NCBI GenBank assembly: GCA_010405405.1
Contig: MU004238.1
Span: forward strand, 383,530-447,529
Reading direction: 5' to 3'
DNA length: 64,000 nucleotides
Source of the DNA: Microthyrium microscopicum
Taxonomy: Eukaryota
Below, in pieces: positions 25,807 through 57,138 of the stretch. Each line of letters starts with the position of its first letter. Position 1 is the first letter of the stretch. The position numbers were made by a program, and so were the translations under genes. The notes beneath the pieces were generated by a model that searched no databases, was not told the origin of the DNA, and saw only the letters and a list, made by a program, of their open reading frames with translations.

Positions 25807-26812
25807 AATACTTATATAAGCAGAATAGATTATAGTAAGTAGTCTTAGCAAAAAGAAGGCTTAGTCTAACTAAATATATAATTAACTAAAAGATAAATAA
25901 GAATCTATAACTATACTATTTTATAGTAAAAATAAACGTATAAGGTAATAGAGTAGCTAATTATAAATTACTATATAGTAATTTAAAGTAACTAAATTAT
26001 ATTATTATTATATAGTTAATAGCTAATAGAGAAGGATAAATATTAAGCAAGTTAGTATTTTTTTAAGTTATATAGGAATTATATTGCTAAAATAATTAGA
26101 AAAGGTAATAACTTAAAAATATATTTATTTAAAAGCGTAGTTAATGCTATATAACTTAAATTTAATAGATTTTTAAATTTACGTACCTATTTAGCTAGAG
26201 ACGTTATTATAGATAAATTAAGTAAAAATATTAAGTAGCTTATTAATAAATAGGAACAAGAGTCTCTTAGACTACGTAGCAAAAAGCTAAAGGAAGTAGA
26301 ACGAGCTCTAATTGGCTAGAATCTAACCCTACACGTTAGTAGACGCCACATTTTTGCTGCTAGTCTGACTAAGTGAGATAAATCAATCGCACTTTGCTTT
26401 GACGTCAAATGTGGTTGAACAGTTTCACGGTGAATGGTATTCTGAGTAGTCGATGAGAGCATTGGCCATTTGTTGTTGACGGTTGGTGATGGAGTTGACG
26501 TATCACTGGTCGTTAATATTCATTCCAATTGCTTCTTGATACTGTGCATTTGGCATGCTGCTGTGATCGATCTTCAATGTACCAGTTGCGTACATGCGAT
26601 GACTCTCTTATTGTTTACCGTGCCAGCACATGAAGTTGGATGCTTCCCTCAAAGTGGAAAGAACCTGGCATCTCGCATGGAACTAACTACCTAGTATCGT
26701 AGTTGGGGAAAGAGCGTACAGTGTCAACCCTCAATTACAAAAGCAGAAAGAGCAGTGGAAGGAAGGCATATCTCTTAGACTCTTCGTCAAGGACAATTAC
26801 CGCTAAACATCA

Positions 26813-30920: not shown

Positions 30921-33899
30921 TCAGTGTGAGGCTTTCTTCTCATTCATTCGCTCAGCCCAGGTCTTCATTGGACGTCTAGGTCCAGGTCGTTTCTTGACCT
31001 GTTGCGTCCGATTCGCCAACAATATCTCCGTAGCTGATGGTTGCGCACGACGACTCGGACTTGGCACTTCGACATCTTCCGGTGGCATGTTTTCCTCGCC
31101 AGACACTGACACGATGACCGACATGCCACTCTCTGGATCCTTGGCCGGCGAGCTTGAAAGTAGAACGTATTTCTTCGCAGCAAATTCGACGTATTCATGT
31201 TCCGCCTCTGTTCTCTTGGGGTTTGTGGCGTGTCTGCGAATTGGCCGTGGCACTGGGTTGACTGATTCTGTTCTGCTGGGAGCTTGGATTGGACCTGTGC
31301 TTCTGGGGACGAAAAAGGATGACGTTGGCAAATTGCTCTCGGTCAGGTCGCTGGATTCTCGGTTACTCGAAGATGGTTTCTGGAAGAAGCTACTTAGTGT
31401 CCCTTGTCCTGGCATCAGCTTCTGCTTTCGTTTGCGAGGGACGTTGGTCTCTAGTTTCTTCGGTTGCTGTTGTGTGATCTTTTCGGGTTTCAATTGTGGC
31501 ATGTTGAAGTCTCGCCCTAGTGATGCCGCTGATGTAAATCCAGTCACCAGACTATGTCCAGTTTGAATGGAGTTAGAGTATCCAGCCTGCACTTGTGGTT
31601 GATAAGATGACAAGTAGAGCTCAGAGCTCGACTCAGTCTGACCTGTGTTTGTCATTGCCTTCAGCTTCTTCGCGGGTCGGAAACCTGCATGTTCTTCCTT
31701 TTTCGATGAGTCCCCGTAAACCAGTTGACGACCTGGGACATCAATAAGCTCATGATCCTCTAGGCAAGTACTGTTGAGCCGGATTTCGCGAAGTATATTC
31801 ATTGCGGGACATTCGCGTCTAAGAATGACTGCAGTCTGTTTCCAGACATCATCAGTATCCAGTGAAGGCCCTAAATGGGCAAATTTCTTGTGGAGACCAT
31901 CGGTTTTGAGGAAACTAGATAACACACAATTTTGCTCATCCCGATTCTCCGCTAATTTCGTTGGCCAGCTCAAGTATAGGAACACCTGCGCACGGGTCAT
32001 GCCAACGTAGAGAAGCCGTCGTTCTTCGTCATCGTTGTCAGAGCGTGAATGTGGAATTGATCCGTGGTAGACCGACGGAATGAAAACTACTGGCCATTCT
32101 AGACCTTTGGCCGCGTGAATAGTGGAAATAGTAACGACGTCGTTTGTTTGTCCATCAGCGGACAATTGAGCATCTGTCGCTAGTGCTACATTGATTAAGA
32201 ATTTGGAGAGGGTTGCTCGAGGGCCCGAGATAACTTCTTGTTGAACTCCATCAATCTCATAGAGCTTTTCTTCATCGGATTCTACGGGCTCTGCAGAGAT
32301 CGATTCGGCCTGCACCTTTAGTTGTTCAACGTTCTCCAGTCGATTTTGATACGTCTCGTCGTCTTTTGATTCTTTGCGTAGATATGCGTCAAATTGGATG
32401 TTTCGAATAATGAACTCAATCAGTGGAATCAGTGCGCCTTCTTCTGGGCCCATTGTCTCTAGATGCTGTTGCCCTCGAAAGATGATGTTGTAGAAAGTCT
32501 TCAATCCCGTCCAAGCTTGATTTGAAATCTTTGCCGTCGGCTTGTGTTCGTCTTTGGCCACTTTGGTGATGAGATTCCACAGAGTCCAGCCACGTCGCTC
32601 CGATTCTTCAACCAATGCCTTCACAGTGGCATCACCAACCTTTCTTGGTGGCTCATTCACCGTCCGCAAAACTGCATCTGTATGGTCGGGCTGAGCGATG
32701 ACGCGCATATAATCCAAGATTATCTTGACCTCTTTTCGATCAAAGAACTTGAAGCCACCAACCATGCGATACGGAACACCTGAAGCCCCCAATTGTGCTT
32801 CAATCTCCCTTGAAAGACTAGCAGAGCGCAGTAGAACCGCGAAATCTTGGTGCGACAGCATACCAGCGCTCAGCTCCTTGACACGCTTGATTTCCCTGAC
32901 AAGCCAGGCAGCTTCTTGTTTTGAGCTATCCAACTCTCTCAACACGGGAAGAGTACCCGAGTGATGCGTCGATTGCATGGTCTTTGATGGTCGTGAGGTG
33001 TCCTGCTCGATGACTTGCATAGAGTATTTCAAAATATTACCAGCAGATCGATAGTTCTCTTTCAGCATGATAGTGGAATGATCTTTGTACTGCCGTGTCA
33101 TTTTGTTAAGATTCTCGATTTCTGCGGAACGAAAACTGTAGATGCTCTGATCCGGATCACCAACGATGGTAATGCTTGCTGGTTTCTTGACACCTCTCCC
33201 TGTCCCGCCGCAAGCAAAACTTTTCATGAGCTCATATTGAACTGTATTTGTATCTTGGAATTCGTCAACTAGCACAGCTTCAATATTCGAAGCACAGTCG
33301 GGGTGTTTTGTCAGGAGCTCCAGGCACCGTAGAAGCAAATCGTCATAATCGAGTAGATTGGAGAGTTTTAGTGTATCCTCATATCGAGTGAAAAGTTCCT
33401 CGAATTCTTGGACTTCAACGCTCATGGGCCCTTTGCTCTGTCGCTCATTATCTGTTGTTGCTTTGCGGCGAGAAATTCGTGATCGTGCTTTGCCAGGCTC
33501 AATGTTGAAGGAATGCCGTTTTATGAGTCGCTTGATGATCGCGTTTGAGTCTGAAGTGTCTGCTATCCCAAAGTCTTTGGGAATTCCAATATGTTGTCCA
33601 TAAAAAGATAGATATCGTCGCGAGATGGAATGGAATGTCCCAAGTACCAATTTTGACTGTAATTCTTGTCCGATAAAGCCACGTATTCTTTCCTTCATCT
33701 CCTTGGCAGCTTTGATCGTAAATGTGCACACGATAATGTTCCATGGTTTGAGTCCATTGTGTTGGATCTGGTACGCGACGCGTGCTGTCAACGTTTTTGT
33801 CTTTCCAGAGCCTGGAGGAGCGAGAACTTGCAGCACTGGAGAGGTGCTTGTGACCGCGTCTTTCTGCTGTTCGTTCAGTCCTTCCAGTATCATATCCAT
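30921..33899 (-). CDS. srs2: UvrD/REP-family SF1 DNA helicase, Srs2 orthologue (992 aa, single exon)
   Basis: LAPPGSGKT, TFTIKAAKEMKER, LVDEFQDTN, VGDPDQSIYSFR, NYRS, STIHAAKGLEWP, EERRLLYVGMTRA; low-complexity C-terminal tail. Confidence 0.93.
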   Translation of the reverse strand: MDMILEGLNEQQKDAVTSTSPVLQVLAPPGSGKTKTLTARVAYQIQHNGLKPWNIIVCTFTIKAAKEMKERIRGFIGQELQSKLVLGTFHSISRRYLSFYGQHIGIPKDFGIADTSDSNAIIKRLIKRHSFNIEPGKARSRISRRKATTDNERQSKGPMSVEVQEFEELFTRYEDTLKLSNLLDYDDLLLRCLELLTKHPDCASNIEAVLVDEFQDTNTVQYELMKSFACGGTGRGVKKPASITIVGDPDQSIYSFRSAEIENLNKMTRQYKDHSTIMLKENYRSAGNILKYSMQVIEQDTSRPSKTMQSTHHSGTLPVLRELDSSKQEAAWLVREIKRVKELSAGMLSHQDFAVLLRSASLSREIEAQLGASGVPYRMVGGFKFFDRKEVKIILDYMRVIAQPDHTDAVLRTVNEPPRKVGDATVKALVEESERRGWTLWNLITKVAKDEHKPTAKISNQAWTGLKTFYNIIFRGQQHLETMGPEEGALIPLIEFIIRNIQFDAYLRKESKDDETYQNRLENVEQLKVQAESISAEPVESDEEKLYEIDGVQQEVISGPRATLSKFLINVALATDAQLSADGQTNDVVTISTIHAAKGLEWPVVFIPSVYHGSIPHSRSDNDDEERRLLYVGMTRAQVFLYLSWPTKLAENRDEQNCVLSSFLKTDGLHKKFAHLGPSLDTDDVWKQTAVILRRECPAMNILREIRLNSTCLEDHELIDVPGRQLVYGDSSKKEEHAGFRPAKKLKAMTNTGQTESSSELYLSSYQPQVQAGYSNSIQTGHSLVTGFTSAASLGRDFNMPQLKPEKITQQQPKKLETNVPRKRKQKLMPGQGTLSSFFQKPSSSNRESSDLTESNLPTSSFFVPRSTGPIQAPSRTESVNPVPRPIRRHATNPKRTEAEHEYVEFAAKKYVLLSSSPAKDPESGMSVIVSVSGEENMPPEDVEVPSPSRRAQPSATEILLANRTQQVKKRPGPRRPMKTWAERMNEKKASH

Positions 33900-34543
33900 G
33901 GCGGGCGACAGATCATGTAGGATAAGCCATGGTTTATTTACACGATTCCCAAAGTTTTGGGTTCGAAGCGCGATCTCGAGCCACGGAAGTTGCGCGCAGT
34001 CATGTGATCTGGCTCAGGTTGTGAGCTTTCATTGGCCAACTCCTCACGTCAGCCTCGTCCTCAGCCTTATGAAAACTCAACACCATGACTATCTCCAAAT
34101 CTTATCATGCAAATCATTCTACCGAGAACTCACAGTCACAAAGACAATAAATACGACTGTTGCAACTGAAATCCATGAAACTGTGTGATACTTCGCTATA
34201 TACTAGGTATTCAATGCTAAAAAGACCCAACAAAATAACATCAAATTTGTACTTATGGTACGTAAAAAGGAAAGAAGGTCCGCAAGCTCCGAGCAAGAAC
34301 CACCTCCAAGCCGATAGCAATATGCAAAAGCCGTAAGAACATTTAAAACAAGTCCCCATCATTCTGATCCAGTAGCAACCTGCAAAACCGGTGACAACAT
34401 TCAAAACAAGTACCAACCTCCAAAGCCAGTACCAATATGCGTAACAGGTAATGACCTACCAATCAGGTAACGATGTACAAAACAGATAATAATCGCAACC
34501 AAACCAAACTGTATGCAGCCCATCCATCCAACCACGTGAAAGC

Positions 34544-36174: not shown

Positions 36175-38750
36175 GTTGGAGAAAGAGATGGGTGAGGTGT
36201 TTGTGAAGGAGAAAGAGAGTGCAGATGTTATAGAGTGGGCGGTGAGGATGATATCAGATCTCAAAGAGATCCTAGGTGAATATGGTGAGAGGTGCAGGTC
36301 CTAGAAGATTGTTCGAGGGACGCGTCGATATGGAAGAAGCTGATTATAAGCCTTGGAAATAGAATCGAACAGGTATAATGAAATGTGAAAGAAAGTAGGA
36401 AGTGTGGTGATGGAGGTTCAGTGATGGCAATGGCAACAAACAGGTGTTGATAAAAGTCTGATGGAGTTTTGCAGTGGTCAAAAGCTGTCAGAACTGAGGG
36501 TGGGTGGAAGAGGAGGAAGAGGACTTGAAGAGTGAGCAGTGGACAAAAGATTATATAGGGTTCAAGCTCCAAGGCTGCGATATGGAGGTGGTGGTTGATC
36601 ACCGTCCAAGTGACAATGGGGAAGTGACTGAGAGGTGGCTACAAAATTCAGCACCAATAAATCCATTGATGAGGTGCCTCGAGTGACATTTTACAGAGGT
36701 TATGCCAGTTACTTCAAAACTGCTGCTACTGGCAGTGACCTTACACATATCATGTGGAGAGACTTTGCGCGAGCGGACTCAAATGTCCAGATTCAACCTC
36801 GAGACAGCACATCGCTTATTGAACCAGGAAAGAGAGGTCACGTCTCGAGTGACCAGGCCTTTGATCGCATTTAGAGGTGGAAAACCTCTATGCTGATTCT
36901 TCGGCGAGTCCCAAGACTCAAACCATACGCAATGGTTGCATGATATCGTCCTAGGAACCTGTTACAAATATATTTCTCATTGTACTGGAAGGTCATATAT
37001 CTCATAGATTTCTATCGCTCACGCGCATGCAGATAGCTTTAGTCCTGCCAACAGCTAAGTCGAAGCTTGACAACGATATATGTACCAGATATAGATTCAT
37101 GTTTGTAATCTCTGACACTCCTTGACAATTGGCGTTGTGTTAGGTACTTTATCAATTTTGTGTCAAGCCATAGCACTGAATGATTGCTCTTCCCATCTGA
37201 CAGATCCAGCTCTCCAGAGCCGTCTAGACCTAGCTTTTTTGCCCCCTCTGTCCAAACATTCCAGAGTCCGACAAGACACCACTATGGTCTGCACTTGAGC
37301 GTAAGGAGATGAGGAGGTGGCGCAAAAGGTGGCTGAGCTAAGTCATGGAGAGTATATACGCGAGCCTGTCAAGCCTGTCTATCTTCATGTTCAAGCAGTT
37401 TTACGTACTGGTTCTACCCAATCAGATAGCATCATTCATGTCACTCTGTCAGAAGTAATCGAGTGAGTAATTAGGAGAAGCAGGAATGGTTTCAAGAATA
37501 CCTTAGGTGGACTCCTTGCTCATATGAAGACTTCCTCTGATAATTCGTGTGAAAGCACATCAGATCTTGATCAAAACTATACCCAAGGGGTTGATGCTCT
37601 CAGAGGACTTGAATGGTTCTGATGACGCGATTTACCGTCTGGTTCCCTTAGGATGACTGTTAGGTAGAAATTCATATTGAAAGCATACAAATGGTTTTGA
37701 GATATGAATATTTTCGGACTTCTATGCCTGCCGGTACTCTGTGGTCTCCAAACCATTGCTGCCGATGATTCATGTTTGGGAGGTAAATTCAGGCAATACA
37801 CGTTATGCAAGGTAGAGTTGTCATATTCCCAGCCTCCCAGAAAATTGTCAGGTTTTCTTATCAGGGTGTATCTCTTGAAGAGCAATGATCTATGCTCATC
37901 ACATTTGGTTTATTGAAATTTTCCATGAAGTTTTTTCCCAAGTAGTTTGATCGGTTTGATGGGTCAATGCTCCAGTAAAGATATCATCCATTCAATCTCT
38001 CGATGTTTGGTACTCTAAAGACGATAGCATTAGAATAACGTGTCGCCTCCACACAATCAATCTCACTATTCCCCTTTTTGTCGTCGAAAGGAGTGAGTTT
38101 CTTGGATGGATAATGTCAGCGACTTCCAAATCCCCATAACTTGTCCTACATAGGATACGCTGCGGTTACCATCAAGTGCATCAAGAACTTGGGAGATCAT
38201 CGCAAACGATTGGATTCAAAGCAGGCACTCTTCAAGTGGTCTTCTAGCAGCCTTTGTAGTTGATGGGAAGATCCTTGTGAACGGCTCAAAATAGTGAGTC
38301 TCCCAAGCTCGAAGGCAAGAACGATCAATGTACGGCAAGAGCATATTTCTGTTTCAATCCAGCACGGACATTTTATCCAAACCCGGCAGGCACTCTCAAG
38401 ATCTGGAATTCGATGAGTTTTGGTGATGGAGGCTTTGAACTTTGGATGATCTCCTGAGCCATCATCACTCCCACGCATCTGGCTGATCTTCTCACCCTTA
38501 TCCATCTGCTCTTGATCAAGCTGTTCATACACCCTCACTACAAACAGCAGCATCCGTATCGAAATCTGAGTCTGAGGCCGCACGGTCAATCCACGAGACT
38601 GCTGCCTATAAAGCTTCCTTCTCCACCACTTCTACTCCACTTCTGCTTCAGCATCCTCTCATACTCTAGCACACCCATCACATCACATTGTAGCCATCAG
38701 ATCATATCAAGACCACCGCACAACATCCCACTAACTCACAATCATCAGCC

Positions 38751-41403
38751 ATGGGCAGAAACAAACATCAAATCATTCTTGACATCAGCCTCACAGACTG
38801 GAAGAATTACGAAACTTCACCGGATTACCATGAGGATTCCACGTCTGAGCTATTTCTGGGCCTCAACGAAGAAGGCCATGTCATTTCCAGCGTATCAGAA
38901 GCTCTCACTATGCACTGGCACTCAGCTTGCGGACCGGAGGATCAGCCCGGTCGAAATCGGGAGCAGCAAGAGCTTCAATATTCGGATGGAATGGAGAGCA
39001 TTTCTCTCCTAAATGGTAGGTTTTGCTCGAAATTCCACCTTCTGCCTTTCAACCGTGGCATTCAATGGCTCCAATCGCACTTGATGGCTACCATCGAGTG
39101 TTGGGGCGCCCATGTCATCCTGTGCAAATTTATACTAATGGCTTTAGGCCTTGAAGAAGAGGTTCATCGGTGGTACGAAGCACGGTCAAACGACCCGCAG
39201 GGCCTCCTCGACATCAAGATTTGGCCATTGACAGACTTTGAGCCAACAAAAGATGAATCGAAGTTCTTTGGCATCAAGATCAAAAACCGAAAATATTATG
39301 TTCCGGTCCAACAAATTGACGATTTCATCAAGATTCGTCACGATAGTCACTGGATTATTCCTCTCTGGTGGTTCAATCAGATGGTTCCTGAAGAGTTACA
39401 GAAGCCAAAGACAGTCAAAGTCGAGTCAAAATTCCCAATCATGCAGTTACCAGTCGAAGTTCGCCAAATGATCTGGCAATATACCATTTTCAACGAGCGC
39501 GGCGCTCAAGAAGGAACAGAAGTCAACCGTTTTAGTGGAAGAGTGCTCCATTACTACTTGTTCGACTACGCTAAGAGCCAACTTCAGGTAGTAAGTTGTC
39601 CCCTACAAAAGCAAAATCACCGATTTTTGGACTCCAAGGCAATCAATCCCAAACACTGGATGTCTCCCCAACGCATCTGATGGCTTCCGTAGATTGCAAT
39701 CTTAGATCGAGTACTATAGTACCCATCAGATGCGGTGGGGATTCATCGCGTTTTATGATTTGACCACAAAGACAAAGTCTTGCATATTGCTTGACGAAAT
39801 CCGAAAGTCCAGCACATCAGGTGGCCCCCATCGCATCAGAAGGCTACCATATGGTGCGATGGGACTTACCGCGAAGACGATCTATGCGTAATCTTATACT
39901 GACAAACTCAGGTTAAGGAGCTACCGATCTCGCTTCAAGGTAGTTCGTTCGCCAAACTCCTGAAATCCGAATTCAGAGAAGACTTTCTCAGCGCTGTGCT
40001 TCACAATGTGCACGTATACTTCACAGATTCCCGAGAATTCAATTTCTTTATTGGCCTTGTACCAATCAAGTACATCCGCCAAATCCGCCATCTGGATCTC
40101 GAAATGCTCGCTCCATGGCAATGGATTGATTTCTTCGGTGGTGGACTCCTCCATCCAACCTACAATACTGGCGCCGTCACATTACCGTTCATGAATCTTG
40201 CAACTATCACTCTCAACGTCCACAATATGGGCAAGGACGAGCCGGTCGAACGCCGAAATGGCATTCGTGGCAAAATTGTCAAATCCTCCATCCGAAATCA
40301 GGCAGGATACGATTTCGCTTACGATGCAGTCACACTTAGACAAAATAAGAAGTGGCTATACAATCCAGTGGCTCCTTGCATGACTCATGCGGTCGACTGG
40401 CTGCTCCAACTGATGTTCCCGTTTGTCAGTCATATCACCAAAATCACACTCACGGGCTGGGTTCGCACTCCTCAGAAGGAGCGTTTCCTCAATTTGTGTA
40501 GCCAGGTAAGAGTTCCCAGTTCCGAAAGCGTCAATTCATGGCAAAGTCTTATTTTACCAACACAATTAATGCCTCCCATCGCATTCGATAGCTATGGTCG
40601 AATGCAATGGCTTCCATGAAGTGTTTTATGTTTTCGCCCTGGAATGATGAAATGGTGTGCTTGGAGTTTTTTAGCTCTTACGGAAAGCTCAAACTAACAG
40701 TTTCTAGGTATGACTTCCCTTTGGAAACACGATATTCTTGACGATATCCGATAAGAACAGAATCCTTGATTTTCCCATCAAATGCGATGGTAGCCATCGA
40801 TTGCGATCAGAAGCGCATCATATGGTACCCTCGCACTTGATAATCCTCAACATATAAATCGCTCTGAATCTTATACTGACAACTTTCCAGGTTCCGACTC
40901 GCCATCCCGTGCATGAATTTGATCCAAACAGCCCTTGGGAGCTTAATCCCACCATTCAGCAGTGGGGAAACCACTTTGAGGCGATGTATAACCAGTACTA
41001 CAAGAAGGTGCGAGATCTGGAATATGTTCCCAAGGTCCGCAAGCATGCCCAACAAACATTCGCTCGGGCTGAGGCGATTGTCAATCGCCAGAAAGAGCTA
41101 TTTCTGAAGGCTGTTCATAAGCAGTACAGACTGGCTGGTGGATGCTACTGGGTTGATAAGGATTGGTTGGTCCACAAAAAAGCCGATGGAGGACCTCCGG
41201 GTGTTTGGGAGTACGATGAGGACCGCAACTGGTACCTCTGGAACATCAAAAATGGCTATTACCAGCAGCGTCCGGCTTGCAAATGCTCGCCTCCTTGTGG
41301 CGTAACCCCAGACTTCTACGATGATGGCGAAGAGTGGAAGCACCAACAGTGGTTAGAACAGGGTGAGAGAGAGTTGGAGGCATTCATTCGTGGTGAAGAC
41401 TGA
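38751..41403 (+). CDS. Uncharacterised F-box-like protein (~604 aa); exons 38751-39015, 39148-39590, 39912-40505, 40891-41403
   Basis: GT-AG introns with branch sites join three ORFs into 605 codons including the stop; F-box-like FPIMQLPVEVRQMIWQY; IRHLDL motif; C-terminal CKCSPPC. Confidence 0.75.
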
Positions 41404-41694
41404 AAAAAATGGTGGAAAATCGATTGACCCATCCTAAATTGTTTTGACAATCAGATAGAAAAAATTGGTATTTCTCAATCAAATTGTAAAACTGCGTCTT
41501 CAAAGCAATTCAAAAATACATAGCGAGCCTCCACCGTACTCTATGGATGCCATTAATGCGGTGGCAGACATCAAATGCGATAAGAAAATCTCGTGAAGCC
41601 GAACATGTGTGTGTTTTTGCTTTTGGGTGAGACTCCAAGGAAAACGTGTCATATAGGTGCCATCGATTGCGGTGGTAGCCATCGAAGCAGATGA
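39071..41694. repeat. Cluster of quasi-palindromic CCATC-N6-GATGG arrays
   Basis: Copies at 39071-39106, 39665-39683 with 39723-39741, 39827-39864, 40575-40610, 40774-40832, 41531-41583 and 41660-41694. Confidence 0.85.
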
Positions 41695-42126
41695 AAGAGT
41701 GCCATTATTGACCTCATTTCCTACATTATTTATTTCAGCCTTGTAGACACAAATTCAGCCTTGCAGGAGCTGCACGGACGCAATTCATCCCGCAGCCGTT
41801 GGTTCTTCCTCGATTTTGACAGGGATGGGAAAGCGCCACTGCCAAGCATCTCCAACTGCTGTTAGTCTCTTCTACTTTTGCTCGTTTGCTCTTTCGGCGA
41901 CGACATAGTACTACCAAGAGATCTCGTTTGTCTGGACGTACTAGTTGTTTGTCGCTGTTTGCGTATTTCAAGCTTCAACAACAGGCGAGATGCATCCTCG
42001 TCCTTGCGACCCTCTCTTCTCGTTTATCCCCCAAGCATGATTTGATCTCAACATCCGCCGGTAAGTCCTTTCCAAGAACTCGCGTATTGACAATGATTCC
42101 TTAAGGTACTAACAATATGAATAGAC

Positions 42127-44664
42127 ATGGCCTCTTCATCGGCCCCATCCTCGCTTACGCGCTATCGTCCCATCGTCCTTACAATCTTCGGTTTTGCCGT
42201 TGGCTACTCCATCTATTACGTCTACACCTCGAGTACACAATCAAAGCCTTCCGGATTACATCGTAGTAATGCTGTACATCGTAGGCGACGAGCCGCAACC
42301 AATACTCCCGAGAATGGCGCTGTAACATCTCGATCCAGAGATAATCCAGCAAATGATAATTCGGTGGAGACCGCGGATATACCTGACGGCACCGAGACCG
42401 TGGCAGAAACCGAAGCCATTCAGACAAATTCTCAGGATGGTTCAGGACTTAAGGCGTTACTCTACTACATTGCTGAAGATCAAAGTCGTCAGAATGCCTA
42501 CATTCACAGAGGAGTCATGTGCAATTCATGTTTCATGAAACCAATACGAGGGATAAGATGGCGCTGCGCCAACTGCGCCGATTATGACTTGTGCTCAGAT
42601 TGCGAGGCGTCAAATATGCACCCAAAAACACACATATTCTACAAAGTCAAAATCCCCGCACCATTTCTGGGAAACCCACGACAAACACAGGCGGTGGTCT
42701 ACCCCGGTAAGCCTGCGAAAATGCCACGCAGCCTACCAACGAATCTATTTCGAAGATTTGTCGACGAGACAAAGTTTGAGAAGGAAGAAATTGAGGCTCT
42801 CTATGACCAATTCACCTGCCTGGCAAACGCAAACTGGACATCAGATCCCAATGGAATCAATTACGCCATCGACCGGACTGCTTTTGACACTGCATTCATT
42901 CCTCTAACTTCAATCAATGCGCCTCAGCCAAATTTGCTTTATGATCGCATTTTCTCGTTCTACGACTCCAATGGCGATGGCCTCATTGGCTTCGAAGAAC
43001 TTTTGAAAGGGCTGGCACATATTCAAGACAAAAATCATGATCAAGCAGCTCGAAGACGCCACATCTTTAATGGCTTTGATGTTGATAGTGATGGCTACAT
43101 ATCGCGAAAAGATGTATTGCGGCTATTTCGTGCTTATTATGCAATCCAAAAGGACATAACGCATGACCTACTCGCGGTACAAGATGAGGAGTATGAGATC
43201 AAGAATGTCCAGCAATTCATATTTTCTGGACAACCATTGAGTGCCGCTTTTACAGAGTCAGCACCGGGTGTTCAGACTACATTTCCTACGGATACAAAAC
43301 AACCGAATAGCTTTGGGGACACCCGCGATTCTACCAATCCGATACACGTGGATTCGACGGATGAAGGACCTAGAGATGAAATTGTGTCTTTGCTTCCAGG
43401 AGAAGAGTTGTGGAATCGACAGCAACAGAATCCGCCTGGAACCTTCATCTTTCCTGCTTCTAGACCTTTAATCGACGAGCCGTGGATGTCAGCTGAAGAG
43501 GATGCGCAGGTTACAGCAAGGCTGCAAGCCAGCGCGATGCGAGACCGATTCCGCCGAAGAGAGTTTTACACCGACGAAGAGGAAGGATTTTTGCTAGAAG
43601 ACCCGGATAAATACTCCTCTTCTCGACAGTCCTCCAACCAGCATCAGCAAGCCCCTACTCAGCATACAGAGCATGCTCAACGAACACCTCTGGGTTTCCT
43701 GCGCTCTGCCCCGTCGTGGAATGTCGCAGAGAATCCTGCTATTGGAATTGAGGCTACGCCAGCTCCATCGGCTGCAAGAAAATCGCGTGAGCAAGTCCTG
43801 CATCGCGATGGCTACGAGGTTCCCATCCCAGATGCGGAAATCGGCAAAGAAATTCTGTATCAGGTGGTTCAGCAAGGTCTCAACGAATTGCTCGACCCTC
43901 TTTTCAAGGAGAAGGAGGACTTGGCTCTTCTGGTCGAAGAAACCGCTATGGAGCGGCGGAGGTGGAAAAGAGAAATCAGACAATTTGTGAAAGCGCAAAA
44001 ACGAGAGAAAGCTGAGGAGAAGAGAGAAGAGGACGAAAACAAGCTGAAGAACGGTAATGGCTCAGCCTTCCATTCGCAACAGTCAGCAGACGCCAATGTT
44101 CTCGAGGACGAAGAAACCGATATCTCATCTTCGGTTTCTTCAGCTGATCATACTGAATCAGAAGATGAAGGAAACGTTGAGCCAATGGGCTGGAATAAAC
44201 ATCCTGGGGGCACCAAGTGGAAAGAAGACTCCAGGCCCAAAGGGCGGGACGATACAGACTTGGTGTTGACGTCTGTCGCTACTGATCGTCAGGTACGATT
44301 GGATCCAACCATGCCACAGTTTCGACCAAATTCAGACAAAGATGTCGATCAGCACTCGGAGTACGTCAGACTTAAATCTATCCATGCCTGGGAAGAAAAC
44401 AGAATACCCACACAAGAGGGTCCAAACGGCTCGGTCAATGGTGGTCCTATCAGAAGCGGTCTATCGGCTGCCAATATAGCTAAGATTGAACCAACCAAAG
44501 CTGAGCTAAAGCAATATGCGATGCTTAACGAAGCCGAACGAAGCATCAAGGAACAAGGAGGGAAAGGGAGATTAAGCTTTCAAGAATTCAAAGCTTTGAT
44601 GCATGGAGAAGAAGGCCGGCGCCTCGCTTTTGTGGATCAATGGTTTGAGCTGGGAAGTTTTTGA
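42127..44664 (+). CDS. ZZ-type zinc finger and EF-hand protein with N-terminal membrane anchor (845 aa)
   Basis: Hydrophobic segment near aa 16-33; HRGVMCNSC..PIRGIRWRCANCADYDLCSDCE..HPKTH; EF-hands DSNGDGLIGFEE and DVDSDGYISRKD; likely 5'UTR intron at 42061-42124. Confidence 0.92.
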   Translation: MASSSAPSSLTRYRPIVLTIFGFAVGYSIYYVYTSSTQSKPSGLHRSNAVHRRRRAATNTPENGAVTSRSRDNPANDNSVETADIPDGTETVAETEAIQTNSQDGSGLKALLYYIAEDQSRQNAYIHRGVMCNSCFMKPIRGIRWRCANCADYDLCSDCEASNMHPKTHIFYKVKIPAPFLGNPRQTQAVVYPGKPAKMPRSLPTNLFRRFVDETKFEKEEIEALYDQFTCLANANWTSDPNGINYAIDRTAFDTAFIPLTSINAPQPNLLYDRIFSFYDSNGDGLIGFEELLKGLAHIQDKNHDQAARRRHIFNGFDVDSDGYISRKDVLRLFRAYYAIQKDITHDLLAVQDEEYEIKNVQQFIFSGQPLSAAFTESAPGVQTTFPTDTKQPNSFGDTRDSTNPIHVDSTDEGPRDEIVSLLPGEELWNRQQQNPPGTFIFPASRPLIDEPWMSAEEDAQVTARLQASAMRDRFRRREFYTDEEEGFLLEDPDKYSSSRQSSNQHQQAPTQHTEHAQRTPLGFLRSAPSWNVAENPAIGIEATPAPSAARKSREQVLHRDGYEVPIPDAEIGKEILYQVVQQGLNELLDPLFKEKEDLALLVEETAMERRRWKREIRQFVKAQKREKAEEKREEDENKLKNGNGSAFHSQQSADANVLEDEETDISSSVSSADHTESEDEGNVEPMGWNKHPGGTKWKEDSRPKGRDDTDLVLTSVATDRQVRLDPTMPQFRPNSDKDVDQHSEYVRLKSIHAWEENRIPTQEGPNGSVNGGPIRSGLSAANIAKIEPTKAELKQYAMLNEAERSIKEQGGKGRLSFQEFKALMHGEEGRRLAFVDQWFELGSF

Positions 44665-46448
44665 ATTGCACATACATACAACCTCGACGATTGTACGTTT
44701 ACCAATCGCTAATAGCTCACATAGATACCCGGGCCGTACTTGAGCGGTATTTGGCTACCTCTTGCTTCTTCTGAAAATGCATAGATAGCCGGTTTGAGAC
44801 ATTTACATTTAGATCCCGAAAGACTCGTGGATGCAAGCATCAGTAATTAGCCGTTAATGCCAGATTATTATCATTTCAATCTCTAAGCGCTCGGTTCAAG
44901 AGATCGATTCTTCCTTACTCTTTGCAGATCACATCTCATGGGCTGGATACTACGCACGAGTGTGGCCGAAGATTGAATGGAGCATTGGGGTGATGCAACA
45001 CAATCCAAGAAAAACACAACCGTCTTCAAACTAATTTTCGTCACTCTATCCCAGCCCGCTGCCCACTAGCAAATAACAGGCCGGGAAATAAAATAATAAC
45101 GAACAGACCACCGCTTGGCGTTGAGCAAAGTGCAGCATTCATTCTTGTACATTGTAGGATTGATTATCATTTGGCCCACACGCCGAGGATTCAGTACGTA
45201 CGGATTTACACTTAATGTTCTTCTAGGTTGTCTTGATAACGGTTACCAGTTGCCGCCTGGCCGCAATGCATATACTATCTCAAGGATGGTGCACAAGGAA
45301 TCAATATACAGTAAACAGGGGCCCATGTCAGCCTGGTCGATCGCTCGCAACTGTATATGTCCAGGTGGTGGCCAAAGCAACAGCCTACAAACAAGTAAGT
45401 ACCTCTCAATATTAATCGAACGCGACGCATTCTTTGATTTGTTTCGCTTGATGAGGAAATGCCAGTACCGGTAGATCCGGACACGTTCAAAGCGTTCAAC
45501 AGTTTAATGACGTCGCCCAATTCGGCCTCAGCAGGCAATTTGAGCCTCCTCTTGAGGCTACAATGGATAGTAACCCTTCTACAGTGATTTTCAAATTCAG
45601 ATGGATCTAGGAGAGGTTTAGTATTGCAAGCAATAATCTAAATTCACGAGCAGGATGGAGTTGATAACGCGATAGCAGCAGAATACGGCTATCACTGGAA
45701 TAATGGCACAATGTCTATACCAGGCATCTTGATATCTAAACTCTGCTAGCTTCACGAGTCGGAAAAGATCTTCTTGGCCTATGTTCCATTGCTATTCTAG
45801 AAAAACTGACGTAGTAACCAGGAACCTCAGGGCAACGATTGGAGCTATCATTTTCCCAGACTTCTCCATCAGTCCGCTCCGCAGTAGTCTCTGATATCTG
45901 GAGAAGACTAGTACGGAGACCACGAAGACCCTGCCTCGAACTCGCTCTAACAGAGGTTTTTGCGCTTGAGCGGCTCGTCGCTCAGGGGATACATCAGATT
46001 GGAAAAACCTGTTTGGTCAAATTCCGCGGCTCCCAAGTCGAATCCAATATACGATTTGATCCTCGATATCTGCTTGATACTATTGGTGCGAGGTCGATGC
46101 GCCTCACGTGCTGTTTTAAGTTTCTCCAGATGTTTCCAACCGTGCATAGGACAAAAACGCAGGGAAATGTTGACAGGAATCAAGGGCTTGCCCCTGTTCA
46201 CGACAGGCCTTGTATATGCCGTCCACGGCCAGCACTGTAGCAATTTAATGAACTGATAATTCACGTCATCATGCTCAGACCCAATCTCGGAGGAACAATG
46301 TATAAAAGACAAGAGTCGCTTCTGGATGTACTTCTTTCTCTTTCATCACAACACTACGACTCAACGAACCAATTCAACGATTTCAAGCCTTCTTTTCTAA
46401 CATTAATACCAAACACCCTCGTTTAACAACAAAACAACCTATATCAAA

Positions 46449-47213
46449 ATGAAGTACTCCGCTGTTACCGTTGCTGCCTTTGCCGGCTCTGCCATGGCCG
46501 CTGGTGGCGCTGATGCCATCAACTCCGTCCTTAACGACATCAACACCTCCGTCAAGTCCTTCGACTCTGCCGTCAAGGGATACTCCGGTGGAGATGCCCA
46601 GGCTCTCCTCCAGGCCTCCTCCAAGATCCAGTCCATCACCGCCGATGGTGCTGCCAAGATCGCTGCCGGCTCCGACCTCACCCTCAACGACGCCGTCTCC
46701 ATCACCACCAACGTCCAGGGTCTCCAGGGAACTCTCGACTCTGCTCTCTCCGACCTCGAGGGCGCTGGCCCAGCTCTAGCCAAGGCTGGAAAGTGCTCAG
46801 AGATCACCTCCCAGCTCTCTGCCCAAGCTGATGCCGCCAAGAAGCTCCAGGACGCCGTCACCCTCAAGGCTCCTACCGAGACCAAGTCCATTGCTCAACA
46901 GCTCGGTGGAAAGATTGGTTCTTCCATTGCCTCAACCCAAGGCAAATTCAAGCAGATCTGCGCTGGTGCCTCATCCGCCCCATCCAGCGGATCTTCATCC
47001 GGTAGCTCCGACCACGCTGGCATGCCCGGTATGGCTGGCAGCTCCAGCTCCGGCTCATCCAGCTCCAGCTCAAGCAGCACTGGCTCCAAGACCAAGTCTG
47101 GCAAGCACTCTGCTTCCTCCACAGTCCCCAAGCCAGCCCAATACACCGGCGCTGCCTCCACAATGACTGCCCCAGCACTCATGGCTCTCGTCGCTGCTGT
47201 CTTCGCTCTATAA
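46449..47213 (+). CDS. HsbA/Mp1-like GPI-anchored cell-wall protein (254 aa)
   Basis: Signal peptide, Ala-rich helical domain, Ser/Gly-rich linker, YTGAA followed by a hydrophobic GPI signal; strong C-ending codon bias; TATAAAA at ~46300. Confidence 0.88.
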   Translation: MKYSAVTVAAFAGSAMAAGGADAINSVLNDINTSVKSFDSAVKGYSGGDAQALLQASSKIQSITADGAAKIAAGSDLTLNDAVSITTNVQGLQGTLDSALSDLEGAGPALAKAGKCSEITSQLSAQADAAKKLQDAVTLKAPTETKSIAQQLGGKIGSSIASTQGKFKQICAGASSAPSSGSSSGSSDHAGMPGMAGSSSSGSSSSSSSSTGSKTKSGKHSASSTVPKPAQYTGAASTMTAPALMALVAAVFAL

Positions 47214-51724: not shown

Positions 51725-51795
51725 GCGTCGAATACGATGGGCATTAGAGAATGTGCTATTTATCAAGTGCTATGGCAGACATCGCACTTGATGGG
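51725..51795. repeat. Further CCATC-N6-GATGG array upstream of PPZ1
   Basis: gcgtc-gaatac-gatgg, then ttatc-aagtgc-tatgg cag acatc-gcactt-gatgg. Confidence 0.7.
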
Positions 51796-52770
51796 AAGGT
51801 GGGAGATATTTCTATGTTGCCTCTGGAAGGACAAGATTGATGGAGTTGGGGAGAGCGGGGACAACTAGAAAAGTACGCTAGTCCTTGTTTGTCGGGAGCC
51901 TTGAACCTCCAAGAAGAAAGCGTGAGACTTGTTGGGAACTTTGGAACCTTCTTTCATCACCAAACTTCCGCCACCATCTTTGATCTCGACTCTTCTTCTG
52001 GGTCACTACCAACACCATTGTCCCCGCTAAATCGTCTCAGTATCCACCATCGTCAACTCTTCAGCTCTCTCCCTCAACAGGCATCTTCTATTCCGTCCTT
52101 CCCTTTCCTCAACTTCAACATCCGCCCTGTTGCTGTTTACCTTCCTTGTGATCCGCTTCACTTGTGCCTTCTTCTTATTCTTGACGACTCATCAAGAAGC
52201 TTGGATCTGGTCTGGGCCCAAACACTCTACTCGCACCTTTTCCTCCGATACCAGCTAAACCCAACATTGCGCGTCATTCTACGACTTTCTCTCCTTCGCT
52301 CTTCCCCATCTGATTCTACCTTTGCTTCCATCGGCATTGTCAACGCCCTCTTGGCCTTCGCCTTGTGTCCCCTGTACTCAATCAACAACATTTGCCTGCC
52401 CCTGTTGCAAAACTTGCGCTCGCTATTCCTCTTTAGCAATACCCAACACCTCGTCAGTTTCAACAACTCAGGTACAGCGGTGATCACAAGTGCTTCAGTA
52501 ACTACTCTTCTCGCCGATTTTGGCTCCTAAACATTCACATTGATCCTTGCCGGGGTGACTTCCTCCGGCCAAAAGCCTAACAACGGCGTCTACTGAGCCG
52601 CTCTTTCTCTTCCTTTCTCGATTGTACCGCCCTCCTTAACATCGTCATATCGTCCGCGTGATACACCTTGGATCAAACGTCATACCAAAGCTTTATTCTT
52701 TTCGCGCAACAATCTCAATACTCTGTCTTGTTCACCATTACAACAATAATTGAAGCGGTAGTCGGTGGAT

Positions 52771-54434
52771 ATGGGCAATACGCCTTCTAAAGCCAAAGGC
52801 ACAGACGGAAATGGCTCAGGTCCCGGCCTCGAATCTCTACCCTCATTCAGCAAGTCCGAGACGAAGGAGTCATCACGATCAATTCGCCAATCACTGCGCT
52901 CAAAGATACCTGGATCAAAGGCCGAAAGTCCTCGATCCTCAAATGTTGGACTCGGTGGGACGGCTGCGACGGGGGAGAAATCCGATGCAGCTTCCATCAA
53001 ATCCTCAATGAGCGTGAGATCTAATGGCACTCGTTCTCATCGTGGCTCAACTTCCGAATCGGCGCGCCCATCCATGGACCAGGTGTCGCCAGAATCTACA
53101 CAATCCGAAGACCTTCCTCCTCCTTCTCCAACGCAGCATGCAATTGGCACTACACATGAAAAAGTTGATGCAGCTAGACGAACGGGCGAAGTAGATCACG
53201 TTTCTGAAGCCCCGCCATCTGGTCTTCATCCGGCTCCATCAGCTCAGCCAAAAGAATCAATCTTGATCAAAAGAGATTTTCCAATTCCGCGACTACCCGA
53301 TGAGACGCCATCCGATAGCACAGCCATGGAGACGAGTGCCTTGAAGCCATCAGATCTCGACGACATGATAACCAGATTATTGGACGCCGCTTATGCTGGA
53401 AAAGTCACCAAAACAGTCTGTCTCAAGAACGCAGAGATACAGGCAGTATGCCACGCAGTCCGCGAAATCTTCCTCTCCCAACCCGCGCTCTTGGAACTCT
53501 CTCCTCCCGTTAAAGTAGTTGGCGATGTCCACGGCCAATACACCGACTTGATCCGCATGTTTGAAATGTGTGGGTTTCCCCCCAACGCAAATTATCTCTT
53601 CCTTGGCGACTACGTAGACCGAGGGAAACAGTCTTTGGAAACAATCCTGCTCCTCTTGTGCTACAAACTGAAGTACCCCGAAAACTTTTTCCTTCTCCGC
53701 GGAAACCACGAATGCGCAAATGTCACTAGAGTCTATGGCTTTTACGATGAATGCAAACGAAGATGTAATATCAAGATCTGGAAGACATTTATTGATACTT
53801 TCAACACGCTTCCCATCGCTGCGATTGTTGCCGGTAAAATCTTTTGCGTCCACGGTGGATTATCACCCTCTCTCAGTCACATGGACGACATCCGGCAAAT
53901 CGTCCGACCTACTGATGTCCCTGACTATGGTCTTTTGAATGATTTGCTATGGAGTGATCCGGCAGATATGGAAAATGATTGGGAAGCCAATGAACGAGGC
54001 GTGAGTTATTGCTTTGGAAAGAAGGTCATCATGGAGTTTCTGCAACGGCATGACTTTGATCTTGTTTGTCGAGCGCATATGGTCGTTGAGGATGGGTATG
54101 AATTCTTTGATGACAGAATACTCGTAACGGTCTTCTCTGCTCCAAATGTAAGCTCTCCTTTGCCCCGGTGCTGGTATTGTAGATTGCTAACTCTCATAGT
54201 ATTGCGGTGAATTCGACAATTGGGGCGCCGTCATGTCCGTCTCTGCAGAGCTGCTGTGCAGTTTTGAACTGCTTAAACCTTTGGACTCGAGTGCGCTCAA
54301 GAGCCATATAAAGAAGGCAAAGAGCAAGCGTGCGAATATGCTCAACAGTCCGGTATGTCATACTTCCTCCACTGTTACTATTCAGCACTAACCTTTTTAT
54401 CTAGCCGGCTTCTCAATTTCCACAATCGTTCTAA
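52771..54434 (+). CDS. PPZ1: Ser/Thr protein phosphatase Z; introns 54148-54199 and 54353-54404
   Basis: MGNTPSK myristoylation motif, Ser-rich N-terminal extension, [34 protein letters not shown]. Confidence 0.95.
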
Positions 54435-55175: not shown

Positions 55176-57138
55176 ATGCTACTGCTTGGCCGACGATCCT
55201 GCCAGCTTGTAACTCGAAGACTTCAAACTACTAGAACTGCTACCCAGTTCTCGCAACTTCGCTCTTCACAACCACAGTCTTCTCAAGTTCGGTCTTCTCA
55301 AGTTCTGTCCTCGCATATTCGGTCCTCGCAAACTCGGTGGTTCTCACAAGCTCAACGAATGATGTCGGACCTATCCATCGAGCTGACTGCTCCAAATGGA
55401 GTCAAGTATACTCAGCCTTTGGGTCTGTTTATCAATAATGAATGGGTCAAGTCTAGTGATGGTGGCAAGATTACTAGCATAAATCCTACGTATGTCTACC
55501 CATGAGGTGTATTCTTTTGTGGAAAGATATTTGGTTATGTGCTGTTATGACTTTCTTTCTGCTGTTCAGCTTACGATACTGACTTTACGAATACATTGCT
55601 GACTTGGTGAACCAGCGATGAGTCGGAAATCGCATCAGTCTACGCAGCTACAGAGCAAGATGTTGATACTGCTGTCAAAGCAGCTCGCAAGGCTTTCAAG
55701 GATCCGAGCTGGAGAGATCTTCCGGCGACGGAGAGGGGGGATTTGATGATGAAGTTGGCAGCGTTGGTTGATGAGAATAAGGATATTCTTGCGACTATTG
55801 AGACTTGGGATAATGGTACGTCGAGGGGAGCGAGACCCTTGAGAGATTGGTGGATTGAGGAACTGGTGGATCAGACCTGACTTGATACAGGCAAGCCATT
55901 GAACGACTCAAAGACAATTGATGTCCCAGAAGTCCACTCATGCCTAAAGTACTACGCGGGCTATGCAGACAAAATCCATGGCCAAGTCATTGAGACGAAT
56001 AATAACAAGCTCGCCTACACGATTCGTGAACCACTCGGAGTATGTGGGCAAATCATTCCGTAAGTCTCCCCTTGCGTATACCAAGAAACCTAAATCAGTC
56101 CCCTGGTTACTCACTACTCACTTGTTTTGTAGCTGGAACTTCCCACTTGCCATGGCAGCTTGGAAACTCGGCCCAGCCCTCGCAGCAGGCAATACCGTCG
56201 TTCTCAAGGCAGCGGAACAAACTCCCCTATCAATCCTCTTCCTCGCCACCCTCATCAAAGAAGCCGGCTTCCCGCCTGGCGTCGTCAACATCCTCAACGG
56301 ACACGGGCGCATTGCCGGTGCTGCGATAGCCAGCCATCTGGACATTGACAAGATTGCTTTCACTGGATCCACGGCAACAGGCCGCGAAATCATGAAGATG
56401 GCTGCCGTCAACCTCAAAAATATCACTCTAGAGACTGGCGGCAAGAGTCCGTTGATTGTATTTGACGACGCAAACCTCGACCAGGCGGTCAAGTGGAGCC
56501 ATATCGGCATCATGAGTAACATGGGCCAGATCTGTACTGCTACGAGTAGAGTGCTGGTGCATAGCAGTATCTACGACTCCTTCGTAAGCTCCTTCAAAGA
56601 ACGCATCAAAAGTACCAGCAAAGTCGGCGATCCCTTCTCCGAAGACACATTCCAAGGTCCTCAAGTAACCAAAACGCAATACGAGCGAATTCTATCATAC
56701 GTCAACGCCGGCAAAGAAGAGGGCGCCACTCTCGAGTGCGGCGGCGAAGCAGAACCACTATCCGGCAAAGGTTTCTTTATCTCGCCCACCGTCTTCACTG
56801 GCGTCAAAGATACCATGAAGATTTATAGGGAGGAAGTGTTTGGGCCGTTTGTAGTGATTGTGCCGTTTGAAAGCGAGGAACAGGCTATTGAGATGGCGAA
56901 TGACACGACGTATGGACTGGGCGCTGCAGTGTTCACAAGAGATATTAGCAAGGCGCATCGGGTGGCGAGACGGATTGAGGCGGGCATGGTGTGGATTAAT
57001 AGTAGCAATGATAGTGATTTCAGAGTGCCGTTTGGCGGCGTCAAGATGTCTGGTATTGGAAGGGAGTTGGGAGAGGCAGGACTGGAGGGGTATACGAATA
57101 AGAAGGCGGTGCATGTCAATTTGGGGACTGTTCTGTAG
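55176..57138 (+). CDS. NAD(P)+-dependent aldehyde dehydrogenase with mitochondrial-type presequence; introns 55490-55615, 55816-55890, 56060-56132
   Basis: GLFINNEW, IIPWNFP, FTGSTATG, LETGGKSP, GQICTA, EEVFGP, PFGGVKMSGIGRELG. Confidence 0.95.

Follow-up and report, generated by a model that had tools for sequence, protein, structure and literature searches.

On the forward strand of contig MU004238.1 of Microthyrium microscopicum, a stretch of 64,000 nucleotides (nt), which we call the window and to which all positions refer, holds a gene of four exons that has been deposited as the hypothetical protein BT63DRAFT_441729 (P0001). The last of its three introns, intron 3, contains a site at which an acceptor TAG is followed directly by a donor GTATGA. 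We refer to this abutment as the seam and to the stretches on its two sides as units 3a and 3b (Table 1). Intron 3 begins behind ...AGCCAG, the end of exon 3 (40505), and ends before GTTCCG, the start of exon 4 (40891). Its internal site presents, in this order, a branch box, an acceptor AG and a donor GT without an exon base in between, which is the arrangement of a zero-nucleotide exon. In unit 3a the branch adenine (40697) and the acceptor G are 10 nt apart, and the corresponding distance in unit 3b is 11 nt. The only CTRAC boxes of intron 3 are those at 40694 and 40876, of which the first (CTAAC) fits the branch consensus at least as well as the second (CTGAC), and besides the donors at 40506 and 40708 the intron has one other donor-like site, a weak GTGTGC at 40655. 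A first-pass annotation of the window had placed CTAAC, TAG and GTATGA at the positions given in Table 1 and had divided the intron into halves of 202 and 183 nt, all of which we reproduced. It had also claimed that the reading frame survives only if no base of the site is retained, and our translations agree. With all introns removed, an open frame of 1812 nt or 603 codons results. In silico removal of unit 3a alone re-forms a donor (CAG/GTATGA) and gives ...CSQ V stop (CAG GTA TGA), and removal of unit 3b alone, full retention of intron 3 or inclusion of a 7-nt microexon each shifts or stops the frame.

The internal site was compared with six local introns, three of 126, 75 and 73 nt in an aldehyde dehydrogenase gene, placed by homology to the protein P0016, and three of 83, 65 and 50 nt, placed by a frame-joining heuristic. 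Their donors read GTAAGT, GTATGT, GTAAGA or GTACGT, and their branch boxes lie 10–16 nt from the acceptor. Since these values bracket the donors and distances of units 3a and 3b, the internal site is canonical by local standards. The introns of the gene are long, with 132, 321 and 385 nt as against 50–126 nt in the six baseline introns, and introns 2 and 3 have three to seven times the local intron length. Both also lie between CAG and GTT in phase 0, a CAG/GT context that occurs in none of the six baseline introns. Intron 3 is bounded by the 6-nt direct repeat CCAGGT (40501-40507 and 40886-40892), which leaves six letters of the contig alignment described below ambiguous, and intron 2 by the 6-nt repeat TCAGGT (39583-39590 and 39906-39913) if its donor is the one at 39588. 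These repeats at both long introns may be mere splice consensus or may be the trace of an insertion. The strict composite pattern CTRAC-N3-35-YAG/GTRNG, which was defined after the seam had already been seen, matched once on both strands of positions 26001-64000 (76 kb searched), namely at the seam. Among 5000 dinucleotide shuffles of intron 3, the strict composite arose in 0.06% and a loose version in 1.8%, and AGGT alone in 48%.

Transcript evidence comes from the public run X1, which holds 0.34 of the sampled words of the gene and whose nature as RNA is a software guess. Its assembled contigs drop rare forms and hold no lariats. The five contigs that fall on the gene show no differing letters, lie entirely within exons and leave every intron uncovered; between 40518 and 40820 the depth is zero. 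One of them joins 40505 to 40891, skipping 385 nt with GT..AG ends and with 73 letters on the shorter side of the junction. Both the exon borders 40505/40891 and the end product 40505>40891 had been named in the first-pass annotation, and this contig carries them exactly. In it the whole of intron 3 is missing from the mRNA, and nothing of the internal site remains. The junction fits removal in one step and in two steps alike, and the contig therefore does not discriminate between these routes. Introns 1 and 2 are bridged by none of the contigs.

The same contig adds 27 codons to the deposited gene model. Exon 3, used as query in a protein search, retrieved P0001 with 100% identity over 87% of the exon. 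This protein comprises 577 amino acids and is entered in its source as hypothetical, from Microthyrium microscopicum (Dothideomycetes). P0001 lacks the codons of 40425-40505, and its model takes an upstream GTCAGT donor at 40425. In the contig, positions 40429-40501 are present and contiguous with exon 4, with the junction 40505>40891, which contradicts P0001. In addition, P0001 contains one extra valine, as the GTAAGT donor of intron 2 at 39591 was used instead of GTAGTA at 39588; the choice between these two donors is spanned by no contig.

By sequence comparison, intron 3 is one member of a family of introner-like introns, repeated and bearing hairpins, that fills all three intron positions of the gene. 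When introns 2 and 3 are aligned globally they match from end to end, with 216 of 304 positions identical (z score 11.0, a score reached by none of 200 shuffles). Intron 2 also resembles each unit taken separately, with 124/189 identical positions for 3a (z 5.6) and 106/146 for 3b (z 5.8), neither score being reached in 300 shuffles, and it shares the 3' box AATCTTATACTGACAA with unit 3b at 16/16 positions. The exons that flank introns 2 and 3 (200 nt per side) are unrelated, as 203 and 385 of 500 shuffles reached their scores. The likeness is thus confined to the introns, which identifies a repeated intron and not a segmental duplication; duplication of an exon together with its intron was rejected as the source on the basis of these flanks and of a protein comparison with an expectation value (E) of 4.3. 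The seam falls into a stretch of about 22 nt that has no counterpart in intron 2, where MAFFT opens a gap opposite ctaggtatgacttccctttgga, and intron 2 possesses neither an internal CTRAC box nor an internal AG/GT.

Intron 1 looks like a short, one-module relative of the family of introns 2 and 3. It is identical to unit 3a at 87 of 128 positions (z 4.1, none of 200 shuffles), the likeness being to the 5' two-thirds of 3a, and nhmmer with a profile of introns 2 and 3 recovers it at E 7.7e-5. The 3' box TTATACTRA ends intron 1, intron 2 and unit 3b. A hairpin core, CCATCGCAT ... ATGCGATGG, recurs in intron 1, twice in intron 2, in both halves of intron 3 and in the 3' flank of the gene. Nine of the 16 matches of the core 9-mer in the window, with one mismatch allowed, fall in 38675-41556, and local alignments among the module pieces reach z scores of 5 to 9. 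The module of 3a aligns with intron 1 at 39059-39114 and with intron 2 at 39649-39712. The core has been kept in four intronic copies, with three of ten pairs changed on both sides in this small sample. Identity among the copies amounts to 66–73%, and the three intronic copies stand in coding orientation; beyond the introns, the 3' flank contains the module alone, both forward and reversed (Table 1). We rejected this flank as a fourth full-length copy (global z 1.2–3.5), since it matches at the modules only. The shared 5' terminus GTANGANTTCCC has two exact matches against 0.03 expected, and it was downgraded as a mark of the family after CCC at positions +10 to +12 had been found in two of six unrelated introns. 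A metagenome scan for CATATGGT-N30-50-AATCTTATACTGACAA gave no matches. About 10 kb downstream, at 51728-51802, there is a further weak match to the module (nhmmer 51759-51802, E 0.61).

Table 1. Positions of the gene with intron 3, of its introns and hairpin modules and of other features of the window
Feature	Positions	Strand	Description	Basis
Gene	38751..41403	+	four exons, 603 codons; = BT63DRAFT_441729 (P0001), hypothetical protein	frame reconstruction
Exons	38751-39015, 39148-39587 (or -39590), 39912-40505, 40891-41403	+		frame reconstruction
Intron 1	39016..39147	+	132 nt, phase 1, one hairpin module, 3' box TTATACTAAT	
Intron 2	39591..39911	+	321 nt, phase 0, context CAG(GTA)/GTT	frame continuity and deposited model
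Intron 3	40506..40890	+	385 nt, phase 0, context CAG/GTT	sequence and one transcript contig
Unit 3a	40506..40707	+	202 nt, donor GTAAGA 40506-40511, branch CTAAC 40694-40698, acceptor TAG 40705-40707	
Hairpin module of unit 3a	~40563-40622	+		
Seam	40705..40713	+	TAG/GTATGA, zero exon bases between acceptor of 3a and donor of 3b	
Unit 3b	40708..40890	+	183 nt, donor GTATGA 40708-40713, branch CTGAC 40876-40880, acceptor CAG 40888-40890	
Hairpin module of unit 3b	~40775-40835	+	core opposite in orientation to that of 3a	
Hairpin module copies, 3' flank	41518-41630; 41657-41691	reverse; forward		z 6.6-8.7; nhmmer E 0.0026, 0.048
UvrD-type helicase	30924-34013	-		Pfam
ZZ zinc-finger/EF-hand protein	42127-44661	+		Pfam
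HsbA-domain protein	46407-47210	+		Pfam
PP1-like serine/threonine phosphatase	52762-54207	+		Pfam
Aldehyde dehydrogenase	55362-57135	+	three introns of 126, 75 and 73 nt	Pfam
NOP9-like PUF protein	59718-61594	+		Pfam

In fold predictions, intron 3 as a whole has a minimum free energy (MFE) of -97.9 (z -2.9), with none of 100 shuffles as stable; unit 3a reaches -49.6 (z -1.8, 11 of 200 shuffles as stable) and unit 3b -38.7 (z -2.3, 4 of 200). In the minimum-energy fold the two halves form separate domains, and the internal branch box is unpaired. The first-pass annotation had assigned each half its own hairpin array, and the separate domains agree with this, although the stability of the halves is just moderately above that of the shuffles. 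Intron 2 folds with an MFE of -98.6 (z -4.3), and intron 1 has a z score of -1.5. The hairpin cores at 40563-40589 and 40777-40803 form an inverted repeat of 27 nt that is 81% complementary. A search of Rfam with positions 38500-42000, at E values up to 1, gave no match, so that the hairpins are not a known intron-borne RNA. In the MFE fold, the 5' splice site of unit 3a (40506-40514) pairs with AGCUCUUAC (40674-40682) just upstream of the internal branch, and the 5' splice site of intron 2 (39591-39596) pairs with ACUUAC (39864-39869) upstream of the terminal branch. Such complements of the 5' splice site were rejected as a real signal, as CTCTTAC (40675) was equalled in 84 of 1000 shuffles and ACTTAC (39864) in 329 of 1000; for unit 3a alone the count was 30 of 1000.

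The reading that we favour, with modest confidence, is that intron 3 consists of two abutting canonical introns that are removed consecutively, and that this arrangement is a by-product of the origin or the length of the intron rather than a switch. It is supported by how rarely the composite pattern occurs, by canonical signals in either unit, by the end product seen in the contig, by the membership of intron 3 in a repeated family with its unusual lengths and CAG/GTT context, and by the precedents from other fungi described below. Under this reading, the fungal spliceosome would pair splice sites across the intron (intron definition), and the nearest competent pair would tend to win; units 3a and 3b would by themselves already be longer than ordinary local introns. 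In most transcripts, two standard reactions, one after the other, would take out both units, whichever of them went first. If 3a left first, CAG would meet GTATGA and the donor would be re-formed, and if 3b left first, TAG would meet exon 4 and the acceptor would be kept. Removal in one step via the outer sites would be an alternative path to the same mRNA. At the seam, acceptor and donor touch each other and could hardly be occupied together, from which we infer that the reactions would be sequential. Half-way transcripts carry an early stop and are probably waste.

Several observations weigh against consecutive removal or against its connection with two sister units. Intron 2, which is colinear with intron 3 and seamless, must, provided that the gene model holds, leave in one step; as this intron is handled without a seam, a seam is not needed to remove an intron of this kind. 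Neither 40505>40708 nor 40707>40891 is present among the five assembled contigs of one run. The RNA nature of that run was guessed, yet the exact skip of the intron argues for cDNA. In direct orientation, the comparison of 3a with 3b gave a z score of 1.9, with 16 of 300 shuffles reaching its score, and the TTATACT box with which introns 1 and 2 and unit 3b end is missing from unit 3a. As for the 12-nt 5' ends that the units share, they reflect in part a C/T-rich trend seen generally among local introns. Taken together, the missing box, the unlike units and this trend mean that simple tandem sister elements are not proven. Moreover, the ancestral state of the seam is not decidable from two copies, introns 2 and 3.

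According to the main rival explanation, which we consider unlikely but deserving of serious attention, the seam is a silent relic or a cryptic site and removal always proceeds in one step via 40506 and 40879/40890, with the hairpins perhaps joining the outer ends. The sole product that was seen fits this, but it would be the same by both routes. That an intron of 321 nt with two hairpins can be handled whole is indicated by the seamless, colinear intron 2, and the inverted repeat of the two hairpin cores could loop out the seam; against this, the halves fold separately and leave the branch box unpaired in the MFE fold, and the internal CTAAC at 40694 is no poorer a branch box than the CTGAC at 40876. 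Findings in other fungi point in both directions. According to the available portions of the respective reports, one-step removal of compound introns is known in Xylariales and Lipomyces, and Lipomyces starkeyi uses both one-step and two-step routes. In the compound introns of Hypoxylon, on the other hand, pairing of the internal sites predominates greatly and one-step removal via the outer sites is occasional; in the parts of these studies that were accessible, internal sites are much favoured over the outer pair in the fungal compound introns examined.

Concerning its origin, the seam may be the relic of two units that came to lie side by side at AG/GT, or it may have arisen within an over-long copy. 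In the first case, two units may have landed at an AG/GT site, and intron 2 may later have lost the junction. The start of unit 3b matches that of 3a at 10 of 12 nt, the last 15–16 nt of both units share a pattern found nowhere else in the window, and intron 1 demonstrates that a one-module intron exists. Introner-like elements are furthermore described as preferring AG/GY, as cited in the accessible part of PMC8469720. Given the colinearity of introns 2 and 3, a side-by-side origin would imply that the pair was copied as one piece. The corresponding scenario, in which the ancestral element was a twin with a zero-nucleotide exon that multiplied as one piece and intron 2 lost the seam of about 22 nt, appears doubtful to us. 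If it were true, intron 3 would be the side-by-side counterpart of the proliferating 'sister stwintrons' discussed below, and zero-length-exon sites of fungi would come from the insertion of an introner-like unit into the AG/GT boundary of another; the copies within one gene would then point to reinsertion into its own transcript or locus.

In the second case, the seam would have arisen in a single long copy by an insertion of about 22 nt and substitutions, and would have been kept because it cuts an over-long intron into two pieces of a size that can be handled, which would amount to adaptive recursive splicing and not to the joining of two elements. We regard this as unlikely, with several points in its favour. 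The seam lies in the stretch specific to intron 3 that faces a gap in intron 2, the 3' end of 3a is without the family box, 3a and 3b show no significant likeness when compared in direct orientation and the intron greatly exceeds the local length. The C/T-rich stretch behind the donor follows a general local trend, and new splice sites inside an existing intron are the model proposed for Lipomyces, as far as the accessible text of that work goes. However, the joint creation of a branch box, an acceptor and a donor is improbable, and the terminal 15 nt of 3a resemble those of 3b, just as the initial 12 nt of 3b resemble those of 3a. Intron 1 shows in addition that a single module with splice signals can stand alone, and no local duplication was found that could have supplied the donor: an internal tandem duplication as the source of the seam was rejected after Tandem Repeats Finder had reported nothing in intron 3 and 869 of 1000 shuffles had reached the local score.

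The first-pass annotation had read the site as two-step ratchet splicing or as a regulated truncation switch, in which transcripts stop after step one (CAG GTA TGA). Such a switch would yield a truncated protein of 434 residues or would tune expression if the half-spliced RNA were degraded; we find it very improbable. The stop codon directly behind the re-formed junction is real, but an early stop is found in every incomplete form, as it is in most retained introns, and no half-spliced contig is present among the five of run X1. The sister intron 2 lacks the site, and the gene, being an orphan, offers no relatives against which to check whether the site is conserved. The likeness of intron 2 and the modules in intron 1 and the flank had been missed in that annotation. 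Since the site sits in a repeated, introner-like family, its natural explanation is origin and not regulation. That the internal site is a chance match devoid of past or present function is hardly credible: AGGT is indeed common in shuffles and the site was selected post hoc after a scan of the whole window for oddities, but the full composite is rare in shuffles and occurs nowhere else in the 76 kb, and its spacing and sequence fit the local intron norm.

The gene product offers few clues to its role. Among 1.84 billion representative proteins, only two matched at E <=0.001, the protein itself and a weak relative (E 1.2e-5), and Pfam gave nothing beyond sub-threshold hints of 2EXR and DUF7730. 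Because this is an orphan gene of unassigned role, the interest of the locus lies in mechanism and evolution and not in physiology. Exons 3 (39912-40505) and 4 (40891-41403) share a short local similarity at the DNA level (score 16.5, reached by 2 of 500 shuffles); the protein comparison of these two exons, mentioned above, revealed no likeness. In the window, the gene lies in a gene-dense part of about 47% GC that begins near 26250 and also holds the other genes listed in Table 1. The preceding block (1-26250) is AT-rich, with a GC content of 0.22 vs 0.47 in the rest and a sharp border. Its dinucleotides are typical of repeat-induced point mutation, with a TpA/ApT ratio of 1.70 and a (CpA+TpG)/(ApC+GpT) ratio of 0.10 vs 1.33 in the rest.

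Intron 3 shares features with several known systems. For long introns of Drosophila and vertebrates, ratchet-point recursive splicing was reportedly described in 2015 by Duff and by Sibley, and there, too, an AG/GT is said to regenerate a donor after step one without an exon base in between. Those introns are said to measure tens of kilobases and to be spliced in a setting of exon definition, whereas intron 3 has 385 nt and belongs to an organism of intron definition. The closest precedent is the BOT1 gene of Cryptococcus neoformans (Burke et al., bioRxiv 10.1101/224170), in which, according to the available passages, an intron of 375 nt consists of 210 and 165 nt that meet at a zero-nucleotide exon. 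Both there and here an unusually long fungal intron contains an abutting acceptor and donor, and both pieces (202 and 183 nt in intron 3) are gone from the mRNA. For BOT1, spliceosome profiling provided measurements of the intermediates, the branches and the junctions, whereas intron 3 is known by its final junction alone. BOT1 is furthermore a gene of a basidiomycete yeast, and the passages at hand contain no origin from a repeated intron, whereas intron 3 has a sister copy in the same gene. In the literature, we found a single case in which zero-length-exon splicing was measured in fungi.

Stwintrons, of the [D1,2] type and sensu lato, have been described in Pezizomycotina and Lipomyces (PMC8469720, PMC9024468, PMC12403724, PMC7138796; accessible parts). 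Like intron 3 under the reading of consecutive removal, these are compound introns of filamentous ascomycetes that leave by consecutive standard reactions with occasional removal in one step, and the same parts describe sequence-related 'sister' copies with internal symmetry or hairpins at new positions. As presented there, the internal intron of a stwintron interrupts the donor, branch or acceptor of the outer intron or is nested within it, whereas units 3a and 3b adjoin with all elements intact, so that 3a, 3b and the complete stretch each qualify as an intron before any splicing has taken place. The outer donor (40506), branch (40876) and acceptor (40890) of intron 3 are uninterrupted, its seam reads AG/GT and not G/GT...AG/T, and its units (40506-40707 and 40708-40890) are adjacent and not nested. 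Intron 3 is therefore neither a stwintron sensu stricto nor one sensu lato. The first-pass annotation had kept the site apart from stwintrons, and in this respect we concur.

Introner-like elements of Dothideomycetes were reportedly described by van der Burgt in 2012. The introns of the present gene resemble such elements in five respects: homology that is confined to introns at unrelated positions (all of them in one gene), length, predicted structure, complete splice signals and the context of a proto-splice site. In the portions of Collemare 2015 (PMC4457414) that we could consult, introner-like elements of Dothideomycetes are likewise longer than regular introns, carry all splice signals, are predicted to form stable structures and have related copies at unrelated positions. 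Their preference for AG/GY, cited in the accessible part of PMC8469720, compares with CAG/GTT at both long introns here. The present family differs in that it consists of three introns of a single gene with 66–73% identity, and in that its modules also occur outside introns. The order is Microthyriales, and the copies are known from one gene and its flank. This suggests that introner-like introns, as judged from these alignments, may exist in Microthyriales and thus outside Capnodiales, where they have been described. In the literature, supplements excepted, we found neither abutting introner units nor introners in Microthyrium.

The locus bears on the problem of how zero-length-exon sites originate. 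Sister introns with and without a seam, together with a single-module relative, occur in one gene and form a natural before-and-after pair. This pair allows a test of whether a seam helps an intron-definition spliceosome to remove an over-long intron, and of whether neighbouring insertions of introner-like units give rise to seams.

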